Positions 4,613-61,769 of a stretch of 64,000 bases of DNA are shown here, piece by piece. How positions within the stretch are numbered: position 1 is the first letter of the stretch; each line of letters opens with the position of its first letter. Source of the stretch: an uncultured Bacilli bacterium (GTDB lineage: Bacteria > Bacillota_I > Bacilli_A > RF39 > UBA660); assembly GCA_934099115.1 (NCBI GenBank), contig CAKOPK010000003.1:24409-88408 (forward strand). Direction: 5' to 3'. The notes beneath the pieces were generated by a model. It made no database searches. It was given only the letters and a program-made list of their open reading frames with translations, and was not told where the DNA came from. Position numbers and translations under genes: made by a program.

Positions 4613-4640
4613 AATCGAAAAAACAGATATGACTATCTGT
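4613..4640 (-). terminator. intrinsic terminator after the 202-aa ORF
   Basis: Minus strand AACAGAT-AGTCAT-ATCTGTT followed by TTTTTT. Overlaps the ORF stop. Confidence 0.5.
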
Positions 4641-5399: not shown

Positions 5400-5849
5400 T
5401 TAAGACATTTTATTTTCAATTTCTAACATAATAGTAATAGGCCCATCATTTAATATATTTACCTGCATGTCACTTCCAAAAACTCCTGTCTCTGTCGAAA
5501 TTCTTTTTCTTAATAATTGAACCCACTTTTCATATAGTACACTAGCTTCCCTTCCATTTAAAGCTCTAATATAAGAAGGCCTATTCCCTTTTAAAGTATT
5601 CGCATATAAAGTAAATTGACTAATAGATAAAATACGACCTTCTACATCTAAAATAGACTTATTCATGACTCCAGCATCATCATCAAAAATCCTTAATTTT
5701 AGGACTTTATCTAGCATTTTTTCTAATACTTCTTCGTTATCTCCAGCAGTAAACCCTACTAAAAGAACTAATCCAAAATCAATTTCTCCAACTAATTTTT
5801 CTTCTATAGAAACACTACTATGTTTACTTCTTTGTACTAATACTCTCAT
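5400..5849 (-). CDS. dtd: D-aminoacyl-tRNA deacylase
   Basis: 149 aa with MRVLVQR..., SQFTLYA and NDGPITI motifs. Overlaps the relA stop, as in the relA-dtd pair of Bacillus. Confidence 0.9.
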   Translation of the reverse strand: MRVLVQRSKHSSVSIEEKLVGEIDFGLVLLVGFTAGDNEEVLEKMLDKVLKLRIFDDDAGVMNKSILDVEGRILSISQFTLYANTLKGNRPSYIRALNGREASVLYEKWVQLLRKRISTETGVFGSDMQVNILNDGPITIMLEIENKMS

Positions 5850-8002: not shown

Positions 8003-8019
8003 CTTTCTCTCTCTTTCAA

Positions 8020-8313
8020 TTAATTTAAATATATATTTTCTTCATGATTAATATTTCTTCTACTCTTTTTAATTTCATCTTTAACATATTCATTAATCTC
8101 TAGTTCATTCAAATTAAAAATATCATTAACCATACTTCCTAAATCTAAATCATAAGAACGTGACCATTTATATTCTTTTAAATAATTCCATATATCTTCT
8201 TCATATATATAATTCATACCCTTTTTATGTAATTCTCTTGCTTTACTCTTTAATGCTGGTTTAATATGATTATATAAATCCGTAACACTTTTAAACTTAA
8301 TTTCATTATTCAT
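8020..8313 (-). CDS. post-transcriptional regulator ComN/YrzD-like protein
   Basis: 97 aa. The pattern IKPALKSKA...EEDIWNYLKEYKW...MVNDI resembles B. subtilis ComN. It is divergent from a spoVB-like gene and close to relA, as in Bacillus. Confidence 0.5.
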   Translation of the reverse strand: MNNEIKFKSVTDLYNHIKPALKSKARELHKKGMNYIYEEDIWNYLKEYKWSRSYDLDLGSMVNDIFNLNELEINEYVKDEIKKSRRNINHEENIYLN

Positions 8314-8391
8314 TCAATCACTCATTTCTAAAAAGGTATCTGCTTTCATATATTTATTATATACCATTTTATTCTATTTTTAAAGAGGAGA

Positions 8392-17583: not shown

Positions 17584-17586
17584 AAA

Positions 17587-17663
<77 letters not shown>

Positions 17664-32311: not shown

Positions 32312-32426
32312 AAATATATATTTAAGAATTAGAAAATGTAACTAATTTATTAAATAATTTATAAAAAAAGTGTTTGAAATAATAAAGCAAGAAAAAAAGC
32401 CTTATTTAAAGACTTTATTTACGAAA

Positions 32427-32503
32427 TGGTGACTCCGGAGTGATTCGAACACTCGACCGATCGCTTAGAAGGCGATTGCTCTATCCAGCTGAGCTACGGA
32501 GTC
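32427..32503 (-). tRNA. tRNA-Arg (anticodon UCU)
   Basis: Minus strand GACTCCGTAGCTCAGCTGGATAGAGCAATCGCCTTCTAAGCGATCGGTCGAGTGTTCGAATCACTCCGGAGTCACCA. Anticodon loop CUUCUAA. Confidence 0.9.
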
Positions 32504-46812: not shown

Positions 46813-48687
46813 TTTTGCTAAGTATTTGCAAATTAAATTACTAATTAAAGTTGGGTCTGGAATATCTAAGCCTTCAATTAAACAAGCTTCTGCATATAAA
46901 ACCTTTGTATAATCTTGTAATTCTTCTAAATTCGTTTCATATAAAAGTTTTAATTTATCTGCGATTGGATGATTCTCATTGATTTCTAAAACTTTTTCTG
47001 CTTTTAAGCTATTATCACCAGGAATTTGTTTAAAAGCCTTCTCCATCTCTAAAGTAATACTTCCTGTACTAGATAAACATACTGGATGATTTTTTAATTC
47101 ATCTGTAAATTTTATTTCTTTAACATCAGGAATATATTCTAACATTTTAGCAAACATATCTTTAGCTTCTTCGTTTTTCTTTTTTAATTCTTCTGTTTCT
47201 GTATTAGAATTAGCTTCTGCATTAATATTTGTTATAGCATATCCTTCATATTCATTTAACATTTTAAGGGTAAATTCATCAATTTGATCCACACAGAATA
47301 AAATTTCATATTTATCTTTTAAAGCTTCTACTTTAGGCATGGTGCTTATCTTAGAAATAGACTCACCGCAAGCATAATAAATAGACTTTTGTTCATCTTT
47401 CATACGACTTACATATTCTTTTAAAGTAGTATATTTTCCATCATTAGAAGAATAAAACATAACAAGCTCTTGTAATTTTTCTTTATTCATTCCATAATTT
47501 TCATACATACCATATTTTAATTGTAAACCGAATGCTTGAAAGAATTTTTCATAATCCTCTCTTTTATTATCTCTTAGTTCTTCCAATTCTTTCTTAATTC
47601 TTGTCTCTAAAGATTTAGCAATGGTCTTTAAAACCCTATCTTGTTGTAAAGTTTCACGAGAAATATTTAATGATAAATCAGGACTATCAACTACACCCTT
47701 AACAAAAGAATAATAGTCTGGCAAAAGTTCACTGCATTTATCCATAATTAAAACTCCATTAGAATATAATTGTAAACCTTTTTCATACTCTTTTGTATAA
47801 TAATCATAAGGTGCTTGAGATGGAATATATAATAGCGAATTGTAACTTATTGCGCCCTCTACAGCATTATGTATATGAGCCATAGGAGTATCATAAAGAG
47901 AAAACTTATCTTGATAAAAAGTATTATATTCTTCTTCTGTTATTTTAGATTTATTACGTTTCCAAATGGGTACTAAACTATTAATAGTTTCTGTTTCTCT
48001 TACGGTTTCATATTCATCTTTATCATTTTCATTCTTTTTATCTTTTAAATGAGTATGTTCCACTTCCATTTTAATTGGATAAGTAATATAATCGCTATAT
48101 TTGCGAATTAACTCTTGAATTGTATAACTATCTAAGAAACGATCAAAATTCTCTTCAACATCTTCTTTAATAGTTAAAATAACATCCGTACCATAAGACT
48201 CTTTTTTAGCCTCACTTACAGTATAACCATCAACTCCAGTTGAAGTCCATTTATAGGCAACATCACTACCATATTTTTTAGATAAAACTTCTACTTTACT
48301 AGCTACCATAAATGATGAATAAAATCCAACTCCAAATTGTCCAATAATATCTATATCTTTTTTATATTCAAATTCTTTTTTAAAATCTTGAGAGCCACTT
48401 TTAGCAATAGTTCCTAAGTTATTTTCCAATTCTTCTTTAGACATACCGATACCATTATCGCTAACGGTTAAAGTACGATTTTCTTTATCAATACTTATAG
48501 AAATAGCAAATTCTTTTTTATTAACTTTGATATTTGCATCCGTTAAAGAATTGTAATGTAATTTATCAATTGCATCACTAGCATTTGAAATTAACTCCCT
48601 TAAAAATATTTCTTTATTCGTATAAATAGAATTAATCATTAAATCCATCAATTTCTTAGATTCTGCTTTAAATTCCTTTTTCTTCAT
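46810..48687 (-). CDS. htpG: molecular chaperone HtpG (Hsp90)
   Basis: 625 aa with the ELISNASDA and GQFGVGFYS GHKL ATPase motifs. Confidence 0.95.
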   Translation of the reverse strand: MKKKEFKAESKKLMDLMINSIYTNKEIFLRELISNASDAIDKLHYNSLTDANIKVNKKEFAISISIDKENRTLTVSDNGIGMSKEELENNLGTIAKSGSQDFKKEFEYKKDIDIIGQFGVGFYSSFMVASKVEVLSKKYGSDVAYKWTSTGVDGYTVSEAKKESYGTDVILTIKEDVEENFDRFLDSYTIQELIRKYSDYITYPIKMEVEHTHLKDKKNENDKDEYETVRETETINSLVPIWKRNKSKITEEEYNTFYQDKFSLYDTPMAHIHNAVEGAISYNSLLYIPSQAPYDYYTKEYEKGLQLYSNGVLIMDKCSELLPDYYSFVKGVVDSPDLSLNISRETLQQDRVLKTIAKSLETRIKKELEELRDNKREDYEKFFQAFGLQLKYGMYENYGMNKEKLQELVMFYSSNDGKYTTLKEYVSRMKDEQKSIYYACGESISKISTMPKVEALKDKYEILFCVDQIDEFTLKMLNEYEGYAITNINAEANSNTETEELKKKNEEAKDMFAKMLEYIPDVKEIKFTDELKNHPVCLSSTGSITLEMEKAFKQIPGDNSLKAEKVLEINENHPIADKLKLLYETNLEELQDYTKVLYAEACLIEGLDIPDPTLISNLICKYLAK

Positions 48688-48734
48688 TATATGATCACTC
48701 TTTCTAGCAGCTTCATTCTATAACTGCTAAATAT

Positions 48735-48763
48735 AATATAACTCTAAAAATAGCACTTGTCAA
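48735..48763 (-). promoter_or_regulatory. sigma-A-type promoter of htpG
   Basis: Minus strand TTGACA (48763-48758), 17-nt spacer, TATATT (48740-48735). Confidence 0.5.
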
Positions 48764-48776
48764 CAGTAAGTGCTAA
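48750..48776 (-). promoter_or_regulatory. CIRCE-like inverted repeat (putative HrcA operator) overlapping the htpG -35
   Basis: Minus strand TTAGCACTT-ACTGTTGAC-AAGTGCTAT versus the CIRCE consensus TTAGCACTC-N9-GAGTGCTAA, with an exact 9-nt spacer. Confidence 0.55.
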
Positions 48777-48787
48777 AAAATAACAAA

Positions 48788-48810
48788 TTAAAAATAGTCC
48801 GAAGACTATT
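48788..48810 (-). terminator. intrinsic terminator of infC-rpmI-rplT
   Basis: Minus strand AATAGTC-TTCG-GACTATT followed by TTTAATTT. Overlaps the rplT stop. Confidence 0.55.
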
Positions 48811-48925
48811 TTAAATTACCGATTAATTCATCTTTTTTCATTGTAGAATAACCCTTAACGCCTTGTTCTTTAGCAATAGCTTTAAGTTCTGTTAAAGTCA
48901 TTTTACTATAATCTTTTTCTTCTTT
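48806..48925 (-). repeat. copy A of the shared rplT/rpsB 3'-end module
   Basis: A 96-nt core (about 48827-48922) differs at 4 positions from about 57953-58048. Confidence 0.85.
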
Positions 48926-49342
48926 TTTAGCAGTTTCTTTTTTTTCTACTTTTACTTCTTTTTTAACTTCAGTTTTAACAGTTTTTCCATCTAAAGCAGC
49001 TTTTGAAACAACTACTAATTCTGTAAATGCAGCTGGATTATCAATTGCAAGTTCACTTAACATCTTACGATTAATTTCAATACCAGCTTTAGATAAACCA
49101 TTCATAAATTTAGAATAACTGATCTCATTTGCTCTACAAGCAGCATTAATTCTTGTTATCCATAATTTTCTGAAGTTTCTCTTATTTGCTTTTCTATCTC
49201 TATAAGCATAAGCTCCACTATGGAATAATTGTTCTTGAGCTGTCTTATATAATCTATGTTTACTACCAAAGTAACCTTTAGCTTCTTTTAATACTTTTCT
49301 GCGACGATTTTTAGACACAGAACCACCTTTAACTCTTGTCAT
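48806..49342 (-). CDS. rplT: 50S ribosomal protein L20 with a roughly 60-aa C-terminal extension
   Basis: L20 core ([26 protein letters not shown]...) followed by a K/E-rich linker and ...[36 protein letters not shown]. Confidence 0.9.
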
Positions 49343-49357
49343 ATTCTAACCTCCTTA

Positions 49358-49552
49358 TTAGATAACAGATTTTAGTCTGCTAGCTTCTCCTTTTCCTAAA
49401 ATTCCTTTATTTCTTCTTTGGCGTACTTGTTTTGAAGAATCTTTATTAGTTTTATGGTTACCATTTCCTTTTTTGTAAGTAATAGTCCCATTTTTCTTTT
49501 TTGTTAAAACCTTGCTACTTGCTTTATGAGTTTTTTGTTTGCACTTTGCCAT
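49358..49552 (-). CDS. rpmI: 50S ribosomal protein L35
   Basis: 64-aa highly basic ORF between infC and rplT. Confidence 0.85.
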   Translation of the reverse strand: MAKCKQKTHKASSKVLTKKKNGTITYKKGNGNHKTNKDSSKQVRQRRNKGILGKGEASRLKSVI

Positions 49553-49569
49553 AATACTTTCCTCCTACT

Positions 49570-50094
49570 TTACTTTTTTGGTGCTAATAGCATAAACATT
49601 TGGCGACCTTCCATTTTAGGATCAGCTTCAATAGTTGATACTTCACTTAAGCTTTCTGCGAAACGCATTAAAACATCTTTTCCTAATTCTGGTCTAGCCA
49701 TTTGGCGGCCTTTAAAACGAATAAATGCTTTAATTCTATGCCCTTTTACTAAATAATCCTTAGCATTTCTCACTCTAGTTTCAAAATCATGAATATCAAT
49801 AGTTGTAGATAAACGATATTCTTTTAATTCTTTATTCGTTTCTCTTTGCTTCTTTTGCTGTTCTTTCAATCTCTTTTGTCTTTCATAACGATACTTATTA
49901 TAATCCATAATTTTTGCTACGGCCATATTGCCATTTTCATTCATTAGAACTAAATCTAAGCCCGCATATCTAGCTAAAGTTAGAGCATCTGCTAATTTTT
50001 TTTGACCCATTTGTTCTCCATTTGGACCAATAACCATCATTTCGCTTACTCTAATTTGCTCATTGATAGGTAACTCTTTATTCACACTTGCTAT
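49570..50094 (-). CDS. infC: translation initiation factor IF-3
   Basis: IF-3 N and C domains (INEQIRVSEMMVIGPNGEQMG...). The ORF track starts at GTG 50085. In-frame ATA 50094 (9 nt after GGAGG) or ATT 50100 are plausible non-canonical starts, as is usual for infC. Confidence 0.9.
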   Translation of the reverse strand: MASVNKELPINEQIRVSEMMVIGPNGEQMGQKKLADALTLARYAGLDLVLMNENGNMAVAKIMDYNKYRYERQKRLKEQQKKQRETNKELKEYRLSTTIDIHDFETRVRNAKDYLVKGHRIKAFIRFKGRQMARPELGKDVLMRFAESLSEVSTIEADPKMEGRQMFMLLAPKK

Positions 50095-50100
50095 ATCAAT

Positions 50101-50235
50101 GCACCTCCATAATTAAAAAGGTAGAATACTTCTATTCCACCTAAACCTTATATTTTTTATTCATATATTTGGCTTTTTACCTATAGATATTCTCTATCAG
50201 GTGGAATAAAATTCGCTTTCCTTTTTCAATTTCTT
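50101..50235 (-). promoter_or_regulatory. L20-leader-type attenuator upstream of infC
   Basis: Minus strand terminator GGTGGAATA-GAAG-TATTCTACC followed by TTTTT (50141-50113). The upstream segment TATTCCACCT (50208-50199) can pair with AGGTGGAATA as an alternative helix. Confidence 0.6.
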
Positions 50236-50239
50236 TATC

Positions 50240-50268
50240 ATTATATAATTAATATATGTATTTGTCAA
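50240..50268 (-). promoter_or_regulatory. consensus sigma-A promoter of the infC operon
   Basis: Minus strand TTGACA (50268-50263), 17-nt spacer, TATAAT (50245-50240). Confidence 0.7.
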
Positions 50269-50299
50269 GAATATAATGTCAAAAAAGCAAAAAAGAGAC

Positions 50300-50731
50300 T
50301 TAATTTAATCTCTCTTTTACTAATTTACTAACTAAGCTCATATCTGCATTTGTTATTTTAGTATTAACTACTTTCATAACATTTCCCATATCTTTCATAG
50401 AAGAAGGCTTTAATTCTGTAAATACTTCATCAATAACTTTTACAATCTCTTCTTCTGTCATTTCTTCAGGTAAATAATTACTTAATACAGATATTTCTTG
50501 ATTTAATTTTAATACTTCCTCTTCTTTATTATATTTTTGATATTCTGCAATACTATCTTTACGACTTTTTACTTGTCTTTTAATAACAGCAATTACATCA
50601 TCATCTGTTAATTCTTGTTTTTTATTAATACTTTCTAATTGCATAGCACTCTTTAACATTCTTAATACTGATAAAGTAAATTTGTCGCCAGACTTCATTG
50701 CATTTTTTAAATCAATTGCTATTTTTTCATT
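50300..50731 (-). CDS. GatB/YqeY-domain protein
   Basis: MNEKIAIDLKNAMKSGDKFTLSVLRMLKSAMQ... matches the YqeY pattern. Follows rpsU as in Bacillus. The ORF-track N-terminal extension overlaps rpsU and is rejected. Confidence 0.8.
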   Translation of the reverse strand, partial: NEKIAIDLKNAMKSGDKFTLSVLRMLKSAMQLESINKKQELTDDDVIAVIKRQVKSRKDSIAEYQKYNKEEEVLKLNQEISVLSNYLPEEMTEEEIVKVIDEVFTELKPSSMKDMGNVMKVVNTKITNADMSLVSKLVKERLN

Positions 50732-50747
50732 CATTATGATTTCCCTC

Positions 50748-50933
50748 TTAATAATTTTTATGCTTTCTAGCATTTCTAATTTGTTCTTTTTTTTCATTTC
50801 TACGTCTTACGCCTGGTTTTTCATAATGTTTTCTTTTCTTTAACTCAGAAGGGACACCGCTTCTAGCAACTTTAGCTTTAAATTTCTTTAATGCTCCATC
50901 AACGTTTCCATTTTGAACTACTACTTTAGTCAT
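50748..50933 (-). CDS. rpsU: 30S ribosomal protein S21
   Basis: 61-aa basic ORF with the ...GALKKFKAKVARSGV...KRKHYEKPG... S21 pattern. Confidence 0.9.
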   Translation of the reverse strand: MTKVVVQNGNVDGALKKFKAKVARSGVPSELKKRKHYEKPGVRRRNEKKEQIRNARKHKNY

Positions 50934-50967
50934 ATAATAATCCCTCCCTTCCGTTTTTTCAATTTAT

Positions 50968-50996
50968 AGTATAACACCAAACATTTTGTATATCAA
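50968..50996 (-). promoter_or_regulatory. promoter of rpsU-yqeY
   Basis: Minus strand TTGATA (50996-50991), 17-nt spacer, TGTTATACT extended -10 (50973-50968). Confidence 0.6.
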
Positions 50997-51009
50997 GTTA
51001 TTTTAGGCT

Positions 51010-51204
51010 TTATTCTACAATTTCTTCACTATAAATAGGCTTTTTTTCTAATTCTTTTTGATACAACTCTTCTTTAATATCATTTTTAAGTGCATTTAAA
51101 AATGTTTGTTTGTAATTATTAATCATCAATACTGATAACATCATAACAATAAATACTAAAAAGAAAGAATATACCAAATACATGGATGCAAACCCTTTTT
51201 TCAT
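51010..51204 (-). CDS. hypothetical 64-aa single-pass membrane protein
   Basis: MKKGFASMYLVYSFFLVFIVMMLSVLMINNY then an acidic/basic tail. GGTGAGG SD. Own promoter-like TGATATAAT at 51230-51222. Confidence 0.45.
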   Translation of the reverse strand: MKKGFASMYLVYSFFLVFIVMMLSVLMINNYKQTFLNALKNDIKEELYQKELEKKPIYSEEIVE

Positions 51205-51221
51205 TTTGCCTCACCAAATCA

Positions 51222-51230
51222 ATTATATCA
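51222..51230 (-). promoter_or_regulatory. extended -10 element upstream of the 64-aa ORF
   Basis: Minus strand TGATATAAT. No good -35. Confidence 0.35.
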
Positions 51231-51255
51231 GAAAAAAAGAGCTTGGGGAACTCTT
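51231..51255 (-). terminator. intrinsic terminator of the peptide/exporter operon
   Basis: Minus strand AGAGTT-CCCC-AA(G)CTCT followed by TTTTTTT, starting 2 nt after the P3 stop. Confidence 0.55.
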
Positions 51256-51256
51256 T

Positions 51257-51412
51257 TTAACAATATTTTTTCTTTGAAAATAATCTTCGAATAGAAGAAC
51301 CTACCATTTTACCTACACTTATTGTAAGAGAAAGAAATCTAGAAACAGAATTTAACATATTACTTGACATTCCTCCTTTGATTTCTAGTAGGGTTATATT
51401 ATTTAGTTGCAT
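51257..51412 (-). CDS. double-glycine-leader peptide P3 (51 aa)
   Basis: Not in ORF track. MQLNNITLLEIKGG | MSSNMLNSVSRFLSLTISVGKMVGSSIRRLFSKKKYC. ATG 51412 is 9 nt after the P2 stop, with AGGA 7 nt upstream. Confidence 0.6.
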   Translation of the reverse strand: MQLNNITLLEIKGGMSSNMLNSVSRFLSLTISVGKMVGSSIRRLFSKKKYC

Positions 51413-51421
51413 ACTTAAATC

Positions 51422-51553
51422 CTAACATTTGTCTGGATAGATTATTCCATATATAACGGAAGCTACAAACACAGTTGCTACTCCAATTAATCCCCAAATA
51501 GTACTTTTAAATCCTCCAGATATTGTTAACAATTCTTCTTGCTTTAGTACCAT
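51422..51553 (-). CDS. double-glycine-leader peptide P2 (43 aa)
   Basis: Not in ORF track. MVLKQEELLTISGG | FKSTIWGLIGVATVFVASVIYGIIYPDKC. AAAAGGAGA SD lies 6 nt before the ATG. Confidence 0.65.
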   Translation of the reverse strand: MVLKQEELLTISGGFKSTIWGLIGVATVFVASVIYGIIYPDKC

Positions 51554-51657
51554 AAGCGTCTCCTTTTTACTAATCTGCCTAATAAACTAATAAAGCTTAG
51601 CCATATAGAGCAACCACCTTCTATTTCTAGAAGTTTCAAATTACTTAATTTTTCCAT
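51544..51657 (-). CDS. double-glycine-leader peptide P1 (37 aa; alternative start 51675 adds MKGKRR)
   Basis: Not in ORF track. MEKLSNLKLLEIEGG | CSIWLSFISLLGRLVKRRRLWY. Its 3' end overlaps the P2 start by 10 nt. Confidence 0.6.
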   Translation of the reverse strand: MEKLSNLKLLEIEGGCSIWLSFISLLGRLVKRRRLWY

Positions 51658-51792
51658 TCTTCTCTTCCCTTTCATCAAAATGCTCTTATTATCTTTAAAC
51701 CAATATAAATTTCTAATAATAAAATAATTAAAATAAATAGTAGTCTACTAAGATAAAATTTTGGTCTTTGTTTTAGAAAAGCTATCTTATTG

Positions 51793-53847
51793 TTATATAC
51801 TTGAAACATTTTCTCCTCCTAGCTCAAATATTTTATCAAACTCACTGGATACATCTTTGTGCGATACATAAATTAAAGTTTTATCCGAAAAATATTTTTT
51901 AACATTTTTAATAATAGTTTTCTCCATTTCAATATTTACCTCGCTTAAAGCTTCATCTAAAATCAAAATTTTGCAATTCTTTAATAATGCTCTTGCTAAG
52001 ATTATTCGTTGTTTTTCTCCTCCACTCAAGTTATTAATGGAAGCATTAATATACGTTTGATATCTATTTTTCTTCTTAGATATGATGTTTTCTAATTCAC
52101 AAATTTTAGCAACTTTTAAAAATTCTATTTCATCAATATTTCTATCGCATATTATGTTTTCTAATATAGTTCCAGAAAATATTTTTTCATTTTGGCTTAC
52201 ATATGTAATATTATTTCTAATTGAATTTAAGCTATAATCTTGTTCACTCGTACTGCCTATTCTTATTATTCCTCTATAATTATTTTCTTGATAGCTTATT
52301 AACTTACATATAGTTGATTTACCGGTACCACTAGGGCCCATTAATAAAACCTTTTCTTGACTATTAATTTTCAAATTTAAATCTTCTAAAATATTATTAA
52401 AATGATTATAGGAAAAAGTTAAGTTTTCTATGAGTATGGAGTTATTTTCTATTTGGTCTAAGCCAGTGTTTAAATCTTCTCTAGGAATATTTATAAAATC
52501 TTTAAGTTTATTAAAAGACGCCTTTAAATAATCAATTCTTGGTAATAAATCAAGAAGTTCTTTGATAGGATTTATTAAATATAATAAAACGCTATTAAAG
52601 GTAATCAAACTTAATAAATCAAGTTTATTAATAGATACTAGATAAATTCCTGCACTAGTTATTAAAAAAGTTCCTATTTCATAAATAACATTTTTTACAC
52701 ATTCTAAATTTTCAATCATAATATTTAATTTTAAATTGCTCTTCAACATGAGAATTAATTTATTTTCAATTCTATTAAGAAAATTATCAGTTAAGCCTAA
52801 ATTTTTAATACTTGTATTCATTTCTATAGTCTCTATTAAGCCAGTATTAAAATCTGTAGAAGTTTCAATGTTTTCTTTTATTTTTCTTTTTAAGAATATA
52901 TTGATTATTAAGTTGTATGAAATAAGAAAAATAATCATGAGTAGAAGCACTAAAAATAATTTGTTGCTTATCCAAAATAAAACCAAACTAGAGCCAATAA
53001 TCAAAATCGAATTTAGAATAATTGTTGTGAATATTTCTCCAATAAGATTTTTTATCTCATTAAGCTCATTAATTCTTGAAACAATTTCTCCTGTCGAACG
53101 ATTCTGAATAAAATTTAAAGGAAGACTTAATATATGAGCTAAAAATTCTGAAAATATCGTTACATCTATATTTTTATTTAAATAAATTAAATTATAGTTC
53201 TTAAGATGAACAAATAAAACTTTTAAAATCATCAAGCCTAGAAAGAATAATATTATGTTTTTTAAAATTGAACTTTGTATTTTCATTAAAGCAACTTGGA
53301 AATAAAAACTTGAAAATATAGTGATGAATGTAATAAAAATATTCATCCAACATATTTGAAAAAATTGTTTTTTGTTTTTTGTTATAAGTTCTAAGAGTAA
53401 AGTAAGTATATTTATATTATTTTCATAAAAAGGTATTTTAGTTACTGGTGTGAATATTAGTATGATATTATCCCAAGCTTCACAAAATTCTTTTTTAGAA
53501 ACTTTTATTTTCCCTCTAGCTGGGTCCATAATCCAAACATATTTCTTAGTTATTTTATATACAACTACAAAATGATTAAGACCATTTTTTAAAACTACAT
53601 GCGCGATTGCTGGTAAGTATATGTTTTCATCATCTATGCTATCTGCTTTCATTCCTATAGCTTCAAAGCCATAATTTTTAGCAGCATTTATTAAATGAAA
53701 TGCAGTTGTTCCAAAATTGGTTGTATTGGTGTCTTCTCTTATTTTTTCAAGCGGAACATAACCTCCATAATATTTAATAATGCATAGTAGAGAACAAGCT
53801 CCACAATCTTTTAAATCTTGTTGTAAAACATTTTCTATTTTTGCCAT
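51793..53847 (-). CDS. peptidase-C39-domain ABC transporter (bacteriocin/peptide-pheromone exporter type)
   Basis: 684 aa. N-terminal C39 domain (QQDLKDCGACSL catalytic Cys context; NHFVVVY...MDPARG His/Asp context), 6-TM domain, Walker A GPSGTGKST, LSGGEKQR, ILILDEA. GGGAGG SD. Confidence 0.9.
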   Translation of the reverse strand: MAKIENVLQQDLKDCGACSLLCIIKYYGGYVPLEKIREDTNTTNFGTTAFHLINAAKNYGFEAIGMKADSIDDENIYLPAIAHVVLKNGLNHFVVVYKITKKYVWIMDPARGKIKVSKKEFCEAWDNIILIFTPVTKIPFYENNINILTLLLELITKNKKQFFQICWMNIFITFITIFSSFYFQVALMKIQSSILKNIILFFLGLMILKVLFVHLKNYNLIYLNKNIDVTIFSEFLAHILSLPLNFIQNRSTGEIVSRINELNEIKNLIGEIFTTIILNSILIIGSSLVLFWISNKLFLVLLLMIIFLISYNLIINIFLKRKIKENIETSTDFNTGLIETIEMNTSIKNLGLTDNFLNRIENKLILMLKSNLKLNIMIENLECVKNVIYEIGTFLITSAGIYLVSINKLDLLSLITFNSVLLYLINPIKELLDLLPRIDYLKASFNKLKDFINIPREDLNTGLDQIENNSILIENLTFSYNHFNNILEDLNLKINSQEKVLLMGPSGTGKSTICKLISYQENNYRGIIRIGSTSEQDYSLNSIRNNITYVSQNEKIFSGTILENIICDRNIDEIEFLKVAKICELENIISKKKNRYQTYINASINNLSGGEKQRIILARALLKNCKILILDEALSEVNIEMEKTIIKNVKKYFSDKTLIYVSHKDVSSEFDKIFELGGENVSSI

Positions 53848-53968
53848 CTATTATGCCTCCCTTCGTTATAATTAATACATATTTTTTAGCGAAAGTCCAG
53901 GGATTTGGCCGCTTTGGTTAATATCTTATTTATGGAAGACATACATCGACAAATTTTGCACTTTTTTT

Positions 53969-54457
53969 ATGTATAATAGCCAATCAAAAAGAAAGGAAGA
54001 GATAAATTTGACAGGACTTGAAATAGCTACTAAAAGAATCAATTCTAACTTAACTATAAAAGAAATGGCCAGAATTTTAAATATTAGTATAAGTAAATAT
54101 AAAATGGTAGAAAGCAAAAATATGCCTTTAAAGCTAGACGAAATAAATTCTTTTTGTAATACTTTTAATATTTCTCTAGATACATTTTTTGGTTTAAATA
54201 AAAAGAAAAAACAAGATAATATTTATCAAAATATAAATTATTCTTATCTAAAATTTAGTTTAAAATATTATAGAAAGATGGCTCGAATTAGTCAAAAAGG
54301 CTTAGCAAATATCCTCGGATTCTCTGTATCTACAATTTCTTTATACGAAAGAAATGCCCATAAAGCAAGCAGTATATATATATATTTATTTGCTAATTAC
54401 TTTCATGTTTCTATAGATTATATGTGTGGCAAAAGTTTACAAAAATTTTTATATTAA
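53969..54457 (+). CDS. transcriptional regulator with two tandem XRE-type HTH domains
   Basis: HTH 1 is LTIKEMARILNISISKYKMVESKN and HTH 2 is ISQKGLANILGFSVSTISLYERNA. Each is followed by a ...SLDTFFG / SIDYMCG helix. The real start may be TTG 54008 (GGAAGAG SD), with TATAAT at 53972-53977 acting as the -10. Confidence 0.75.
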   Translation: MYNSQSKRKEEINLTGLEIATKRINSNLTIKEMARILNISISKYKMVESKNMPLKLDEINSFCNTFNISLDTFFGLNKKKKQDNIYQNINYSYLKFSLKYYRKMARISQKGLANILGFSVSTISLYERNAHKASSIYIYLFANYFHVSIDYMCGKSLQKFLY

Positions 54458-54466
54458 AAAAGAAGT

Positions 54467-55630
54467 TTAATTATCTTCTAAAACCTCTTTTATAAAAATT
54501 TCATCATCTTTAAATAAATCATATTTTTTTACAATAAACTTAAATATTACTTTCATAAGAGCTATACAAGGAGTCGCAATAACCATACCAAGTATTCCAA
54601 AATAGTGAGCAAATACTAATAAACCAATCATAATTGTTACTGGATGTAAATGGGTTGTTTTACTCATAACAATTGGTTGTAATATATAGTTTTCTACTAA
54701 CTGAACAACTACACATACAATTAATACAGCAATGCCTGTTATGGAACCTTGACTAAAGCCAACTATTACTGCAGCAGCTCCTCCAATATATGGTCCTATA
54801 TAGGGAATTAAATCTGTTAAACCACAGAATACTCCAAATAATAATGGTGCATTTAAGCCAACAATAGCAAACCCTATCGTATCACAAACAAATACCATAA
54901 ATGCTACTAAAAGAGTTCCACTAATTGTTTTTCTTACTTCTTTGCCAATATCAGTCAATAATACTTCCATCTCATATTTATTCTTATTAGGAACTAATTT
55001 AAGAAAATGTTTAGCAATCGCATCAAAATCAAATAGCATATATAAACCAACTACTAAACTAATTAAAATAGTACCTATACCAGAAAATAAATTTCCTAAA
55101 ATATCAATTAATGATGTTGGAAGTGAATTTGTAAACTTTAATAAATATTCTCCTACTCCCGAAAATAAATTATCTTTTAATCCTGATACATCTAAGCCAC
55201 TAATAGCAACTTGGTCTAAAAAATCATTCATTACAACTTTAAATTTATCTAATATTGCCGGCAAAGTTATGATTAATTCATTAATTTGATTATATAAAGT
55301 TGGGATTAATATTCTTAAAAATATATAAATAAATATTAAAAATATTGCATATACAAGTAAACTACCCCATATTCTCGGTAATCCTTTTTGATTTAATTTC
55401 TTTACAATTGGATTTAACAACCAAGCAATAACAAAACCTATAAATAATGGTGATAAAACTTTAAGGAAAGTAAGTAAAATATGCCATACATTTAAATTTT
55501 TTAAAATAATTGTTCCACATAATATAATGGCTACAATCATAACGATATACAATAGCTTTAATATTTTCTTAGTTAAAGATACTACCTCATTTACTTCTTC
55601 GTTATTTATTTCCTTAAATTTTTTATTCAT
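54467..55630 (-). CDS. AI-2E family (PerM/UPF0118) transporter
   Basis: 387 aa, about 8 TM segments, with the LIPYIGPYIGG and NYILQPIVMS patterns typical of the family. Confidence 0.8.
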   Translation of the reverse strand: MNKKFKEINNEEVNEVVSLTKKILKLLYIVMIVAIILCGTIILKNLNVWHILLTFLKVLSPLFIGFVIAWLLNPIVKKLNQKGLPRIWGSLLVYAIFLIFIYIFLRILIPTLYNQINELIITLPAILDKFKVVMNDFLDQVAISGLDVSGLKDNLFSGVGEYLLKFTNSLPTSLIDILGNLFSGIGTILISLVVGLYMLFDFDAIAKHFLKLVPNKNKYEMEVLLTDIGKEVRKTISGTLLVAFMVFVCDTIGFAIVGLNAPLLFGVFCGLTDLIPYIGPYIGGAAAVIVGFSQGSITGIAVLIVCVVVQLVENYILQPIVMSKTTHLHPVTIMIGLLVFAHYFGILGMVIATPCIALMKVIFKFIVKKYDLFKDDEIFIKEVLEDN

Positions 55631-55631
55631 A

Positions 55632-56162
55632 CTAAACCCTCATTAACTCGATTTCTTTTTCCTTAAAGATTTCGTCTATCTTTTTATTATATGTATTAAT
55701 ATTTTCTTGTATATCTTCTAAATATAATTTTTCTTCATCCTCTGGCAATTCCATTTTTTTAATATCATTATTAGCGTCTTGGCGAATATTTCTTAATGCT
55801 ACTCTTGCTTCTTCACATATCATTTTAGCTTGGCGAACATAATCTTTTCTTTTTTCTTCCGTAAGTTCAGGTACTGTTAAAATGATTAATTCTCCATTAT
55901 TTGTTGGCGTAATACCAATATTAGCCTCATTAATAGCTCTTTCTATTTCTTTTAAGGCTCCACGATCAAATGGTTTAATCATTAAGCTTCTTGCTTCTGG
56001 CACAGTTATATTTGCTAAACTTTGAATAGGAGTTGGTACCCCATAATAATTAGCCATAATTCCATTTAACATAGCCGGATTAGCTCTACCAGCTCTTATA
56101 TTTAAAAGCCTTGCTTCTAAATTTTCTATTGCTTTTTGCATTTTTGTTTCTACTTCATCCAT
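55632..56162 (-). CDS. frr: ribosome recycling factor
   Basis: 176 aa with the LNIRAGRANPAML, ITVPEARSLMIKPFD and RNIRQDANN patterns. Confidence 0.9.
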   Translation of the reverse strand: MDEVETKMQKAIENLEARLLNIRAGRANPAMLNGIMANYYGVPTPIQSLANITVPEARSLMIKPFDRGALKEIERAINEANIGITPTNNGELIILTVPELTEEKRKDYVRQAKMICEEARVALRNIRQDANNDIKKMELPEDEEKLYLEDIQENINTYNKKIDEIFKEKEIELMRV

Positions 56163-56199
56163 ATTCTATTATTCCTCCTTAATTGAATATTATAACATC

Positions 56200-56228
56200 A
56201 TTATATCCAAAATTACCCAATTTTACAA
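56200..56228 (-). promoter_or_regulatory. promoter of frr
   Basis: Minus strand TTGTAA (56228-56223), 17-nt spacer, TATAAT (56205-56200). Confidence 0.6.
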
Positions 56229-56274
56229 GCTTCTAACTACTTATATTAATATATATGGCAATTTTTTCATCTTA

Positions 56275-56865
56275 TTAATTACTACTTAAATAATTAGTAA
56301 ACATCGTTTTAAAATTATTAAGTTTTATTCCTTTTCGATAATCAGTCCAATAATCCTCTGGAGTTAAATTACCAATCATAATAGCAGTTTCATTATCATA
56401 ATAAAGAATCTCCCCTTTTTTTACAATAATTAGCGTCGGGGCATTTATATTTTGTACGCCAACATCATTTGTAAGAACATAATTCTTTAATTTTAAAACA
56501 ATACTCTGATAAGTCCCATTTTTATTTTGTCTATCTTCATAAAAATTATAATACAAGACTTCTTTAATTCCTGTTTCTTTTGCGGCTTCATTTATAATAT
56601 TTGCATAATATCCACTCCATACATTTTCTGGAAATCCCATAAAAATAATAGCACTTCCATTTTTCATAATAGAATAAATATCTGTAGCATTCGAATAAAC
56701 AAAAACATTGTCTTTATTAACATTGGCATACTCAGAATCAAATTTTTCATTATCAACATTTATTTTATGACTAAAATCTCTAGTGCCTATATAAATAAAC
56801 GCTGCTATAATAAAAATAAATAATAAACCTTGTAATATTTTAATTGCCTTCTTATTCATAATCAT
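56275..56865 (-). CDS. hypothetical membrane-anchored protein, possibly a thioredoxin-like fold without CxxC
   Basis: 196 aa. N-terminal TM. AIIFMGFPENVWSGYYANIINEAAKE ... APTLIIVKKGEILYY resembles thioredoxin-fold topology, with NVWSG where WCxxC would be. Confidence 0.4.
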   Translation of the reverse strand: MIMNKKAIKILQGLLFIFIIAAFIYIGTRDFSHKINVDNEKFDSEYANVNKDNVFVYSNATDIYSIMKNGSAIIFMGFPENVWSGYYANIINEAAKETGIKEVLYYNFYEDRQNKNGTYQSIVLKLKNYVLTNDVGVQNINAPTLIIVKKGEILYYDNETAIMIGNLTPEDYWTDYRKGIKLNNFKTMFTNYLSSN

Positions 56866-57018
56866 TCACCACTTATTAGTATTATAACATCTTAAAACAT
56901 TTATATTAAATGAAAACCACTAAATTATGTTAAATAAGTGTCGAATATTGTTTTTTTCATAAAAAAAATTAAAAATTGGATGTTTTTATTTTTAGTTTAT
57001 ATGAACTTTCCTATAAGA

Positions 57019-57046
57019 TAAAAAAAGGAAACTCTGTTAGTTTCCT
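57019..57046 (-). terminator. intrinsic terminator of rpsB-tsf
   Basis: Minus strand AGGAAAC-TAACAGA-GTTTCCT followed by TTTTTTT. The tsf stop lies in the loop. Confidence 0.6.
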
Positions 57047-57915
57047 TTGATTTGATTCATTACTTCTTCAGCAAAGTTTTCATTTCTTTTTTCAATTCCT
57101 TCGCCTACTTCAAAACGAATCATACTCTTAATCTCACCATTATTATTTTTTACATAAGTTGAAACACTTATATCGCCATCTTTAATAAATGGTTGTTCTG
57201 CTAAACAAATTTCTTTATAGTATTTTTTAATACGTCCTTCTACCATTTTTTCAGCGATATCTGCAGGTTTTCCTTCAGAAACAGCTAATTCTTTTTGAAC
57301 AGCACGTTCACGTTCTACTACCTCTGCTGGAACATCACTTGTAAATACGTAAGCTGGTTTCATAGCAGCAGCTTGCATTGCAACATCTCTAGCTACTTCC
57401 TCATTTGCTCCTTTTAATACAGTTAAAACAGCAATTTTACCACCCATATGTAAATAAGAACCAAATACTTCATCATCTTGTTTTTCTACAATTCCTACTC
57501 TTCTTAGAGATAGCTTTTCTCCAATTTTAGCAGTCTTTGCAATAATTAAATCTGCAATAGTTCCATCTTCATATGGTAAAGCTAAAGAACTATCTAAATC
57601 AGTAGCATCACTATTTAAAATAATATTACCGATTGTATCAATCATTTCTGTAAATTCTTCATTTTTACTTACAAAATCTGTTTCACTATTTACTTCTAAA
57701 ATAACTGCACGATTACCATTAACATAAATATTTGCTAACCCTTCTGCAGCAATACGTGATTCTTTCTTAGCACTTTTAGCAATACCTTTTTCTCTTAGCC
57801 AATCTGTAGCTTCTGCCATATTACCATTGCATTCAGCTAATGCTTTTTTGCAATCCATCATGCCAGCACCAGTTTGCTCACGTAATTCTTTTACCATACT
57901 TGCAGTAACTTCCAT
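57037..57915 (-). CDS. tsf: elongation factor Ts
   Basis: 292 aa with an N-terminal UBA-like MVKELREQTGAGMMDCKKAL. Confidence 0.95.
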   Translation of the reverse strand: MEVTASMVKELREQTGAGMMDCKKALAECNGNMAEATDWLREKGIAKSAKKESRIAAEGLANIYVNGNRAVILEVNSETDFVSKNEEFTEMIDTIGNIILNSDATDLDSSLALPYEDGTIADLIIAKTAKIGEKLSLRRVGIVEKQDDEVFGSYLHMGGKIAVLTVLKGANEEVARDVAMQAAAMKPAYVFTSDVPAEVVERERAVQKELAVSEGKPADIAEKMVEGRIKKYYKEICLAEQPFIKDGDISVSTYVKNNNGEIKSMIRFEVGEGIEKRNENFAEEVMNQIKGN

Positions 57916-57931
57916 AATCTATCCTCCTATA

Positions 57932-58050
57932 TTACTTTAAATTTGTAATAATTTCATCTTTTTTCATTGTAGAATAACCTTTAACTCCTTGTTCCTTAGC
58001 AATAGTTTTAAGTTCTGTTAAAGTCATTTTACTATAATCTTTTTCTTCTA
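57932..58050 (-). repeat. copy B of the shared rplT/rpsB 3'-end module
   Basis: See copy A. 92 of 96 nt are identical by eye. Confidence 0.85.
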
Positions 58051-58903
58051 CTTTTTCTTCTTTTTCTACAACTTTTAGAGTCTCTTTTCTTTCTCCACGT
58101 TTATCATTTTTCTTAAATGATTTTCTTTCAGTTTTCTCAGTTTTATCAACGATAGGTTCTTTAATTACTTCATCCATAGTTTTTACTTTTTTATCTTCTT
58201 CAGTAACATAATCAACCATCTCTAATCCATGAGCTTCACAAATAGCATTATTTAAAACACCTAATAATACTTTAACGCTTCTTACTGCATCATCATTTCC
58301 TGGAATAACAAAATCAACATCATCAGGGTCACAATTTGTATCAACTACTCCAAATACTGGAATATTTAATCTTCTTGCTTCTCTAATAGCATTAATTTCT
58401 TTCTTAGGATCAACAATAATTAAAGCATTAGGTAATTTGTTCATTTCTCGAATACCTGATAAAATCTTATTTAATTTTTCATATTCTTTCTTTAAACCAA
58501 TTACTTCTTTTTTAGGTAAAACATCAAATTTACCATCTTTTTCCATATTTTCAATTTCTTCAAGTCTCTTAACTCTTCTTCTGATTGTACGGAAATTAGT
58601 TAAAGTTCCACCTAACCAACGTTCAGTAACGTAGTAAGAATTACTTCTTTCAGCTTCTTCTCTAGCAGCTTCTCCTGCTTGTTTTTTAGTCCCTACAAAT
58701 AAGAAAGTTCCACCATTATCAGCAATAGCTTTTACCTCAGCGTAAGCTTCCTCTAATTTTTTTGTAGTTTTTTCAAGATCGATAATATAAATATCTTCTC
58801 TAGTACCAAAAATGTACTCTTTCATTTTAGGATTCCATCTTTTAGTTTGATGTCCAAAATGAACTCCTGCTTCTAATAAATAACTCATAGAAACAACGGC
58901 CAT
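57932..58903 (-). CDS. rpsB: 30S ribosomal protein S2 with a roughly 85-aa C-terminal extension
   Basis: S2 core ([19 protein letters not shown]...) then a K/E-rich linker and ...[36 protein letters not shown]. Confidence 0.95.
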
Positions 58904-59116
58904 AAATCATCCCATCCTTTCGTTTTTTACCTCTTAATACTTCATCATCTTTATCCACTACTTATAGTAGCACTCGGACAAAAACTCCATATTAATGCGT
59001 ATTTGCAATTTATTTGCCAATAGTATTATATTATAAATTAGTAAAATAAACAAGATAAAGTTGCATATTTAATAGAAAATATCTAGGAAATATGCTAAAA
59101 TAGACTTGTGATTGCA

Positions 59117-59368
59117 ATGAAAAATATTCTTATTAAATTAATACATTTTTATCAAGCATTACCTTTATCTAGCCATTCTAAATGTCGATTTTATCCTTCA
59201 TGTTCTAATTATGCCATAACCGCTATTAAAGAATATGGAGCATTCCATGGTTCTATCATGGCTATAAAAAGAATTCTTCGCTGTAACCCTTTTAATAAAA
59301 GCTGCGGTATTGATTTTGTCCCTCCTAAAAAAGAAAAACAAGAAATTACTTCTTGTTCGCACAAATAA
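59117..59368 (+). CDS. yidD: membrane protein insertion efficiency factor YidD
   Basis: The [11 protein letters not shown] motif. ORF track starts at GTG 59108, and ATG 59117 is more likely. The 3' end overlaps the convergent ORF by 23 nt. Confidence 0.85.
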
Positions 59369-60086
59369 TACCTTTATCAGATATAAACTTAGAAGCCGTT
59401 ATAACACCAGTTTGTTTCTTAGTAAATTTACCATTTTTTAAAGTATAAGTATAATAAGCTTCTACTACTTCATTATCTTTAGCATTACAAATAGATACAC
59501 CTTTATAATTAATATCTTCTACTACTCTTGTAGCATATATCTTTATAGTATTATTATCATAACTAATAAAGTCTGTATAATCTTTAATACGCATATCTTC
59601 TTTATCAATATCATATTCTTCTAATACAATATTTCCTTCAGTATCTATCGCATATAAAGTAGTTGTTCTACCATTTGTTCCATCTGTTAAAGTAAAGATA
59701 ATATAATTATCCATGACTTGAAAATTTAAGAAAATTTTATAATCAATACTTCCCTGTTCTTCAATATTTAAACCATCTTTTTTATAAAACTCATGACCAT
59801 TAATAGTTGCCACTACTGTATTTGGATATCCATTTTCTTTAAAATTTTTAAAATCAAATACTAATTTTTGATCTTTTCCCCTTACTTTTAAAGTTTTTTC
59901 ACAGTGAGTTACTGTCGCTGTTCCTTCATCACAATCGGCAACCAATAATGCATTTTCACCTACTCTAACACGTATTCCTTCTACTCTTAAATGATTATCT
60001 CGGAATGTATGTGTGCTGGAATAAATTAGAAGTCCAACTAGTAATCCTACTCCTAAAATAACTCCTACTATTTTAATTCTCTTCAT
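59346..60086 (-). CDS. hypothetical membrane-anchored protein (246 aa)
   Basis: N-terminal TM ([17 protein letters not shown]), then a beta-rich ectodomain. No family recognised. Confidence 0.45.
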
Positions 60087-60139
60087 TTCATTTACCTCCC
60101 TATATATTGATTATAAGTAAGAAAAGTAAAAATAACAAG

Positions 60140-61045
60140 CTATTTTTGCATTTTTTGTCTAGGATGAGCTTTCTTATAAACACTTTTTAATCGTTCTGAT
60201 GTAACATGAGTATAAATTTGTGTAGTACTAAGGCTACTATGTCCTAATAATTCTCCTACAGAACGTATATCTGCTCCATTATTTAATAAATCCGTCGCAT
60301 AAGTATGGCGAAACGTATGTGGTGTCACTTTGCTCTTAACTCCATGCTTTTCTGCAAGTTTCTTTACAATATTTTCTACACTCCTAGTCGTTAAAGGATT
60401 CCCACTCTTACTTATAAATAAATATTCACTAGTTATTCCACTTAATATTGCTAATCGGTGAACTTGCAAATATTCTTCTAATAATTTAGTATCACAAGCT
60501 TTATAATAAATCGTTCTCTCTTTATTTCCTTTTCCCAAAACTTTTAAAGAGCCATCTTGTCTTAAATCATTAACTTTAATATTTACAAGTTCACTAACAC
60601 GAACCCCAGTAGTATATATAAATTCAATAATAAGCCTGTTACGAAATTCTAAATCATTTTCTTTGGAGTTACTTGTAAGTATAGCCTCTATTTCATTATT
60701 ATTTAAAAAATTAGGTAACTTTCTAGCTATTTTCGGGTTTTTTAAATTCATAAAAGGATTCCCCACTAGCATTTTTATTTCTAGTAAATAATTATAAAAA
60801 CTTCTTACTGCACTTAAATGAAGAGAAGTAGTTTTATTTTCATATCCTTTAGCAATCAAATATGCTTTATAAGTATTCGCTTCTTCCCTCGTAACACCAA
60901 AAAAAGAAAGATGCTTTTTTTCTAAATAGTTTTTATATTCTTCTAAAACCTCTTTATAAGTTTCTTTTGTCTTTATAGAATAATTTAATTCCAAAATAAT
61001 ATATTCTAAATAACTATCTATATAGCTTTCCATACTATTTTTCAT
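60140..61045 (-). CDS. tyrosine recombinase XerC/XerD family
   Basis: 301 aa. N-terminal SAM-like core-binding domain and the catalytic residues R (TGVRVSE), HTFRHTYAT, LGHSSLSTTQIYTHV. Confidence 0.8.
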   Translation of the reverse strand: MKNSMESYIDSYLEYIILELNYSIKTKETYKEVLEEYKNYLEKKHLSFFGVTREEANTYKAYLIAKGYENKTTSLHLSAVRSFYNYLLEIKMLVGNPFMNLKNPKIARKLPNFLNNNEIEAILTSNSKENDLEFRNRLIIEFIYTTGVRVSELVNIKVNDLRQDGSLKVLGKGNKERTIYYKACDTKLLEEYLQVHRLAILSGITSEYLFISKSGNPLTTRSVENIVKKLAEKHGVKSKVTPHTFRHTYATDLLNNGADIRSVGELLGHSSLSTTQIYTHVTSERLKSVYKKAHPRQKMQK

Positions 61046-61685: not shown

Positions 61686-61692
61686 ATATTTA

Positions 61693-61769
61693 TGGTGGAC
61701 CTCGTAGGGCTCGAACCTACGACCGCCCGGTTATGAGCCGGATGCTCTAACCAACTGAGCTAGAGGTCC
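61693..61769 (-). tRNA. tRNA with CAU anticodon (Met, or lysidine-modified Ile2)
   Basis: Minus strand GGACCTCTAGCTCAGTTGGTTAGAGCATCCGGCTCATAACCGGGCGGTCGTAGGTTCGAGCCCTACGAGGTCCACCA. Anticodon loop CUCAUAA. The body resembles Ile-type tRNAs. Confidence 0.85.

Follow-up and report, generated by a model that had tools for sequence, protein, structure and literature searches.

The window, by which we mean the whole 64,000-nt stretch of DNA that was analysed, came from an uncultured member of the Bacilli (GCA_934099115.1, contig CAKOPK010000003.1, positions 24,409-88,408 of the forward strand) and had a G+C content of 27%. It held two genes for ribosomal proteins, rpsB (uS2) and rplT (bL20), whose features are collected in Table 1. 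The names given to both genes in a preliminary description of this DNA were right, as full-length Pfam matches were found to Ribosomal_S2 at residues 9-223 of the S2 protein (E 1.2e-96) and to Ribosomal_L20 at residues 3-109 of the L20 protein (E 4.6e-46). Both genes lay in conserved operons, rpsB-tsf and infC-rpmI-rplT, which in the window's clade followed one another in the order rpsB-tsf...infC-rpmI-rplT, with about 9-12 kb separating rpsB and rplT. The family profiles stopped well short of both protein ends, at residue 223 in S2 and residue 109 in L20. Beyond them, each protein continued into a charged, Lys/Glu-rich linker, of low complexity by composition and probably disordered, and then into a second Pfam match, to Rho_N, at residues 291-320 of S2 and 146-174 of L20. 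The two copies of this terminal module were direct repeats on one strand, 9.1 kb apart, and the genes separating them included tsf, frr, rpsU, infC and rpmI.

Table 1. Positions of the two genes, their parts and the compared tracts within the window
Feature	Position	Strand	Remarks
rplT, ribosomal protein bL20	48806-49342	minus	178 aa; core, linker and Rho_N tail (ORF list, Pfam)
L20 conserved core, aa 1-118	48989-49342	minus	Pfam; AlphaFold helices 11-117
L20 linker, 24 aa	48917-48988	minus	92% Lys/Glu/Val/Thr; predicted disordered, pLDDT <50 at residues 123-141
L20 Rho_N module, 36 aa	48809-48916	minus	putative conversion donor
96-nt core in rplT (preliminary description)	48827-48922	minus	codon comparison
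rpsB, ribosomal protein uS2	57932-58903	minus	323 aa; core, linker and Rho_N tail (ORF list, Pfam)
S2 conserved core, aa 1-235	58199-58903	minus	Pfam; 92% aa and 85% nt identity to the S2 core of relative O
S2 linker, 52 aa	58043-58198	minus	charged, low-complexity (codon comparison, composition)
S2 Rho_N module, 36 aa	57935-58042	minus	putative conversion recipient
96-nt core in rpsB (preliminary description)	57953-58048	minus	4 differences from 48827-48922
Minimal conversion tract in rpsB (putative)	57971-58039	minus	Asp codon of DYSKM to Ser TCT of GYS
Maximal conversion tract in rpsB (putative)	about 57938-58048	minus	L20-diagnostic sites, W/O/U codon alignment

By its profile match, the tail peptide common to S2 and L20 is a Rho_N (PF07498) helix-extended-helix domain; the preliminary description had seen the common tail and had not identified it as such. 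The Rho_N score was 42.1 bits for L20 (E 8.2e-11) and 37.3 bits for S2 (E 2.7e-9), against a Pfam cut-off of 24.9, and phmmer aligned the module with solved Rho N-termini (8hsj_A, residues 21-49, E 0.0047; 7oqh_A, residues 58-88, E 0.011). A SAP domain (PF02037) was considered and rejected, as its scores of 18.7 and 14.6 bits fell below the cut-off of 23.9 and the matches covered profile positions 1-18 only. The OB RNA-binding and RecA-type ATPase domains of Rho were absent from both proteins by Pfam, and neither protein is Rho. Each module had a net charge of +3 by composition. The L20 protein was also modelled with AlphaFold2, using 39 homologues. In the model, the core was helical (residues 11-117), residues 123-141 were disordered (pLDDT <50), and the tail consisted of two helices, 150-160 and 170-177, joined by a 9-residue loop, with pLDDT of about 77-81. 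The L20 tail would in this model adopt the helix-extended-helix fold, which is predicted only.

The surroundings of the two genes held some further features. An inverted repeat, AATAGTC-CGAAG-GACTATT, followed on the minus strand by a T-run, overlapped the rplT stop codon (48790-48815) and is a likely intrinsic terminator. Unlike this 3' end, that of rpsB was followed within at most 16 nt by the ribosome-binding site and start codon of tsf. Homology between the two loci stopped precisely at the stop codons. Between frr and rpsU, at about 50900-53847 on the minus strand, lay a gene for a 684-aa protein with Peptidase_C39 and ABC transporter domains (51793-53847), after which came four small ORFs of 43-64 aa, with a counterpart at 5496-8333 of locus L081. 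This group resembles a cluster for bacteriocin or peptide export and was retained in three of the relatives discussed below (A, B and C).

Identity of the tails and codon bias

The near-identity of the tails reported in the preliminary description was reproduced by an exact codon-by-codon comparison, in which the two 96-nt cores differed at 4 of 96 nucleotides. Three of the differences were synonymous (AAG/AAA for Lys, GGC/GGA for Gly and AAA/AAG for Lys), and the fourth was an Ala/Thr change (GCT/ACT). The core had been called the last ~32 codons of each gene; its length of 32 codons was correct, and its place was not, as it comprised codons 8-39 counting back from the stop (stop = 1). Across the last six sense codons and the stop, rplT and rpsB differed at 8 of 21 nt, and upstream of 'EEK' their identity collapsed, the S2 and L20 linkers exhibiting no homogenisation in the codon comparison. 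A repeat finder extended the full repeat to 122 nt with 89% identity (48807-48928 and 57933-58054), and the longest present-day unbroken identity between the tails was 42 nt. No third copy of the module was found in the window by the repeat finder, by tblastn or by a broad module HMM run on six frames with filters off. A separate three-member repeat family of 73% identity (17584-17657, 32424-32497 and 61690-61763), ending in ...GCTGAGCTAC/G, looks like a set of minus-strand tRNA genes and no true repeat.

A structured RNA or regulatory element was considered as the cause of the nucleotide conservation and was rejected, as no Rfam family matched across 47000-60500 at E<=1. The contribution of codon bias was estimated in two ways. 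Under a codon-usage null drawn from 53 ORFs of the window, 19.3 of 31 codons were expected to be identical, and 28 were observed (P about 2e-4). An empirical null was drawn from module copies of different genomes, in which 66.7% of codons were common at same-residue positions. Under it, the 26 identical codons among 29 non-Met codons yielded P about 0.004 for a core that the preliminary description had chosen post hoc, and P about 0.03 was obtained over 35 codons. The synonymous identity exceeded codon bias to a moderate degree, significantly and, taken alone, not overwhelmingly. The argument from synonymous sites in the preliminary description pointed in the right direction and was weaker than stated (P 0.004-0.03), as two thirds of the codons would be expected to agree anyway. 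Since codon bias alone explained much of the synonymous identity, it is the comparative evidence that carries the case.

Comparison of the tails with those of related genomes

Two relatives, O (OLVR01000011, with L20 at locus L094 and S2 at L130) and U (ULRR01015294, with L20 at L099 and S2 at L157), carried both genes on one contig at a spacing of ~10 kb, like the window. Their S2 cores were 91-92% identical to that of the window in amino acids and 84-85% in nucleotides. Within each of these relatives, the S2 and L20 tails were distinct, with 25 differences in the 96-nt core in O and 33 in U, and their motifs read 'ALEDMTL...KERSIKGYS' on S2 and 'DYSKMTL...KEQGVKGYS' on L20. The S2 tails of O and U were separated from each other by 12 differences. 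The S2 tail of the window was separated from these S2 orthologs by 24-27 differences in 96 nt, from its own L20 tail by 4, and from the L20 tail of O by 8. The L20 tail of the window likewise had 8 differences from that of O in 96 nt, and such equal distances (8 and 8) would be expected if the window S2 tail had been copied from its own L20 after the split between the window genome and O.

Single codons and the module tree gave the same grouping. The Ser codon of GYS was TCT in the window S2 and in the L20 lineage and AGT in the S2 orthologs, and the Leu codon of ELK in the window S2 was CTT, as in the L20 lineage (12% of Leu codons here), against TTA in the S2 orthologs. When 47 distinct module DNAs were joined in a neighbour-joining tree, the window S2 tail fell within a clade that otherwise consisted entirely of L20 tails; 98.7% of codon bootstraps placed it nearer to the window L20 tail than to the S2 orthologs, and in 99.7% the ortholog clade excluded it. 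The module tree conflicted with the core, as the window S2 core grouped with the S2 of O and U. Gene conversion between rpsB and rplT, which the preliminary description had proposed, was supported by the position of the window S2 tail nearer to L20 tails than to S2 orthologs (bootstrap 0.99), and the comparisons supported a putative direction from L20 to S2 in the window's lineage. The donor may have been a third copy of the module elsewhere in the genome, in which case the donor changes and the process is the same. The converted tract appeared discrete: identity started in the linker (EEK) and stopped at or before the stop codon, and the upstream linkers and downstream DNA were unrelated. The diagnostic sites bounding it were DYSK versus ALED or NIED, Leu CTT versus TTA, EQGV versus ERSI or TRGI, and Ser TCT versus AGT.

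Very probably, these observations are best explained by old fusions of Rho_N to both genes, a non-reciprocal conversion of the rpsB tail by the rplT tail, and recurrent exchange in both directions elsewhere. The host lineage would be one of low-G+C, uncultured gut Bacilli of Acholeplasma/RF39-like affinity in which both fusions are old. A stretch of the rplT tail, about 70-115 nt long, would have overwritten the matching tract of rpsB by non-reciprocal homologous recombination, after the split from relatives that kept distinct S2-type and L20-type tails, and four substitutions would have followed since. By extension from the model for tufA/tufB (PMC5485169), the overwriting may have occurred by break repair or template switching with the other copy as template, and the ends of the tract may have been limited by the ends of the homology. 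A crossover between the direct repeats would delete essential genes and be lethal, so that only conversions would survive.

The age of the event was examined with three more near-clade genomes (A, B and C, with W denoting the window genome). The gene pairs of A, B and C were matched by inference from identical longest-contig records and not from single contigs, as the 10-kb flanks around the L20 relatives just missed rpsB. S2 carried an L20-type tail in W, A, B and C alike, and at least one conversion probably dates to their ancestor. A replacement of the S2 tail private to the window species, to which the 'EDLxxKT' S2 tails of the nearest GTDB representatives had pointed, was rejected because 67 of the 120 nearest S2 proteins had tails of the DYSxM type, and because of the six-genome matrix; an ancestral event followed by later ones agrees better with both.

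It could be asked whether a single older conversion from L20 to S2 in the W/A/B/C ancestor was sufficient, with the 4 differences in 96 nt reflecting slow divergence since. The L20-type S2 tail in all four genomes fits this account, as does the window pair, which had no window-specific shared amino-acid changes and whose codon identity (26/31) lay within the cross-genome range of 0.72-0.89. It predicts, however, that the two tails of W would be at least as far apart as the 10-16 differences in 96 nt found between the W tails and their orthologs in A, B and C; the 4 differences found (rough Poisson P about 0.004-0.03) were the minimum of the 12x12 difference matrix. The same-genome pair was the closest for W (4), A (8) and C (9), with B (13) as the exception. 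Among quartet-informative sites in W, A, B and C, those grouping by genome outnumbered those grouping by gene (42 to 17, with 9 cross), whereas between O and U the respective numbers were 1, 20 and 1. Private changes were also common to both tails in genome A (the linker VETKEEAK and private residues) and in genome C (T-DYSEM). A single ancestral event is unlikely as the whole explanation, and further lineage-specific homogenisation, in the window's lineage as well, probably took place. The case for a recent event private to the window comes down to 4 differences in 96 nt, against 8-10 or more.

A second alternative does without conversion and attributes the similarity to an old duplication or fusion, purifying selection and extreme A+T codon bias. 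The empirical null, with its 66.7% of same-residue codons common to unrelated genomes, gives this account some footing, and so does the rate at which the module evolved. Between the L20 genes of the window and O, the modules diverged by 8% of nucleotides and the cores by 18%, the module being the more conserved across species. Its slow evolution suggests unusually strong constraint, possibly at synonymous sites also, and explains the high identities of modules across genomes. The window L20 and the genome C S2 tails were 91% identical over 36 codons, and the window pair 90%; such identity across genomes and genes indicated that the resemblance may partly reflect purifying selection on top of the older conversion in the W/A/B/C ancestor. 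Against an account by selection and codon bias alone stand the distances of the window S2 tail, 24-27 from the S2 tails of O and U despite cores 85% identical and only 4-8 from L20 tails, its shared Ser TCT and rare Leu CTT, its tree placement with 0.99 bootstrap, and the genome-specific switching of module variants in the adjacent-gene clade described below. The comparison of W, O and U has largely refuted this account; we consider it very unlikely, and conversion from rplT to rpsB the better reading.

A collapsed or chimeric contig joining an L20 tail to rpsB is barely conceivable even for what was evidently a metagenome-type assembly, in which short repeats can mislead assemblers, as the copies differed at 4 sites within intact ORFs and unrelated flanks, the architecture recurred in hundreds of protein clusters, an independent assembly (L081) was nucleotide-identical to the window in rpsB and rplT, and a variant strain (L082) kept the L20-type S2 tail; the assembly artefact that the preliminary description had named as a possible refutation was thereby ruled out. 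The exact window L20 protein was found on eight contigs. Strain L082, 99.3% identical over 20 kb, retained both tails with private substitutions, two of them synonymous in S2 and one in L20. At a divergence of 0.7%, its two tails thus had 3 more differences between them than those of the window, which indicated that homogenisation is episodic, and not continuous on the timescale of strains. The preliminary description had spoken of ongoing conversion, which was right only in part. In the same strain, the genes for an AI-2E-family transporter and a cysteine desulfurase/aminotransferase (3732-4895 and 19289-20439 of L082) were each split into two ORFs, by either strain-specific pseudogenisation or assembly frameshifts.

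Distribution and recurrent exchange of the tails

An S2 protein scan with one genome per species found matches in uncultured gut Bacilli, 'Tenericutes' MAGs, Acholeplasma sp. CAG:878, Clostridium sp. CAG:1193 and Paracholeplasma vituli. The module was present on S2 in L001-L069 (about 65 sampled species, with the culturable Paracholeplasma vituli as L065), except for L043, whose contig stopped within the S2 match, and was absent from S2 in L070-L080, which included Streptococcus, Ruminococcus and Anaeroplasma. By precomputed assignments, the 120 nearest relatives of the L20 protein (76-100% identity) and the 120 nearest of the S2 protein carried PF07498 without exception. The tail type of the window L20 was kept in 118 of those 120 L20 relatives. 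A metagenome scan with the module yielded 41 S2 hosts, 33 L20 hosts and 8 others, mostly truncated S2 or L20 genes, and same-contig S2/L20 pairs numbered only 2 among 80 loci. Judged by this distribution, the Rho_N fusions are old on both genes. The recent duplication offered as one reading in the preliminary description was thereby ruled out, as the tails predate the event.

Exchange of the tails was also indicated in a separate clade, with cores 84-97% identical among themselves, in which rplT lay directly upstream of rpsB (infC-rpmI-rplT-rpsB-tsf; loci L024, L030, L033, L035, L038, L040, L042, L044, L045, L047-L050, L055, L057-L059 and L061). The module copies were direct repeats in this layout also. 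Two variants of the module occurred: variant A, 'G[IV]KGYSxMKKAEL', and variant B, 'KKINVTGMKKAEII', one residue shorter. S2 carried variant A in nearly all species sampled and the L20-type variant B ('VTG') only in L048, L050, L057 and L061, all of which fell in a clade whose L20 carries variant B. The reverse pattern was found in L030 and L024, whose L20 tails were their own S2's variant A with 96% and 85% nucleotide identity, respectively; the L030 pair was 96% identical, versus at most 82% to orthologs. The tails of the mixed relatives L033, L038, L042 and L049 were 57-62% identical, and those of L040, L044 and L045 looked mosaic. Other subclades had their own flavour on both genes, such as 'EDLSxKTL' or 'VDYSKMTV.ELKKLAKEKG.SGYS..ISSLN'. 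At least five or six independent exchanges between S2 and L20 tails, in both directions, would be needed to account for these patterns. With exchange recurrent in both directions, the tail would evolve in concert across two unrelated genes.

A protein search with the 40-aa module returned only fragments of 31-69 aa. Entries of 31 aa named 'Rho termination factor N-terminal domain-containing protein', starting at the Met of 'MTLTELK', were common (P0007, P0008, P0010-P0013 and P0017, among others), some of them from contigs as long as 50 kb. Such entries probably represent tails of S2 or L20 that were cut off by a frameshift within the A-rich linker or by the way genes are called where a contig ends, or they may be free-standing mini-genes. 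An exhaustive representative search was dominated by multi-copy Rho_N proteins with high summed scores, headed by P0276-P0297, which had 3-8 tandem Rho_N/HeH/SAP modules (e.g., 569 aa with at least 4 Rho_N matches).

Known systems and possible function

Among the closest precedents is the conversion between tufA and tufB in Salmonella and E. coli (PMC5485169), where, as here, dispersed copies of translation genes are kept alike, synonymous sites included, in contiguous tracts that stop where homology ends, and crossovers are selected against. A survey of concerted evolution in prokaryotes covers whole duplicated genes (PMC6053082). Unlike tufA/tufB and the cases of that survey, which involve entire paralogous genes of at least about 1.2 kb, uS2 and bL20 are non-homologous and belong to different subunits. 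Also unlike tufA/tufB, only a terminal domain of ~100-120 nt was exchanged, and in both directions in different lineages. Gene conversion, Rho_N and extensions of ribosomal proteins are each known already, and both domain combinations are auto-annotated in databases. What is new is the domain-restricted, recurrent and bidirectional conversion between two non-homologous essential genes; in the literature searched, no description of Rho_N tails on bacterial ribosomal proteins was found. The system is a clean natural case of concerted evolution of one domain in two otherwise non-homologous essential genes, over a homology island of ~100-120 nt, far shorter than in the classic bacterial cases. In these gut lineages, caution is warranted with phylogenies of ribosomal proteins and with markers for strain typing, which hold a segment of different history.

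The tail resembles the N-terminal helix bundle of Rho (PF07498) in its sequence match, predicted helix-extended-helix and net positive charge, and, unlike in Rho, it is C-terminal, on a disordered linker, attached to a ribosomal protein and without the OB and ATPase domains. Arabidopsis RHON1 (PMC3458557) also has a Rho-N domain of ~40 residues at the C-terminus of an unrelated protein. Unlike the bacterial tails, RHON1 is a non-ribosomal chloroplast protein that partners RNase E, and its RNA binding has been shown experimentally. SAP, HeH and LEM domains are likewise small helix-extended-helix units, and the weak SAP matches overlapped the first helix; the typical ligand of these domains, in chromatin proteins of eukaryotes, is double-stranded DNA. 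Mosquito RPS6 (PMC548281) likewise has a lineage-specific, charged, low-complexity C-terminal addition, which is histone H1-like, whereas the S2 and L20 extensions end in a folded domain that is exchanged between two genes.

In the ribosome, both uS2 and the globular domain of bL20 face the solvent, the former on the 30S subunit, close to where mRNA exits, and the latter on the 50S subunit. From these positions, two near-identical tethered modules would project from opposite faces of the ribosome. The strong conservation of the tails implies a function, and together with the tolerated swapping it suggests that the tails are interchangeable and may share a ligand. We think, by analogy, that the tail may be a tethered single-stranded-RNA-binding module, interchangeable between S2 and L20; such interchangeability would explain both the tolerated replacement and the strong conservation of the module. 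In plant RHON1, the one experimental precedent found for an isolated Rho-N domain, the last 40 aa, comprising that domain, suffice for binding of single-stranded RNA, including 16S and 23S rRNA fragments (PMC3458557). The N-terminal helix bundle of Rho is positively charged and helps RNA loading, and Rho itself is absent from all 100 surveyed Mycoplasmatota (PMC11347177).

Rho_N on flexible tethers is widespread on both subunits in a large clade that comprises uncultured Bacilli of the gut and Acholeplasma-like organisms. A bolder and rather doubtful proposal is that the tails are a lineage-specific addition to the ribosome, on both subunits, matched by conversion for one common ligand. If true, the tails would bind single-stranded RNA or contact RNA polymerase in a Mollicutes-related lineage, and the common ligand could, for instance, be mRNA, the transcription machinery or the nascent rRNA of an assembling ribosome. 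In the broader group to which this lineage belongs, cultured members lack Rho (PMC11347177). By maintaining the co-adaptation of the tails, gene conversion would then be no neutral by-product of recombination.

Possible further hosts of near-identical modules in related metagenomic DNA, and other tails on the two ribosomal proteins, were also encountered. A Pfam spot-check of further Rho_N hosts found an SRP54-type GTPase fragment with Rho_N (P0386) and HTH_3 with Rho_N (P0419), architectures without relevance to the window. In L093 (436-1128), an N-terminal FtsA-like fragment was joined to the module on a 1.2-kb contig that may be chimeric, and L105 (350-1207) encoded a 285-aa protein with a C-terminal module, thioredoxin-like with a signal peptide as judged by eye. 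In rplT of L035, L047 and L058 and in rpsB of L071 and L073, the module was missing, and the tail was a long Lys/Ala/Thr-rich, histone-H1-like sequence of low complexity (e.g., ...AKKTTTKKATAKTEEKPVKKTTTKKTTKKEDK). The S2 and L20 tails are evolutionarily labile, and different basic tails may substitute for each other.
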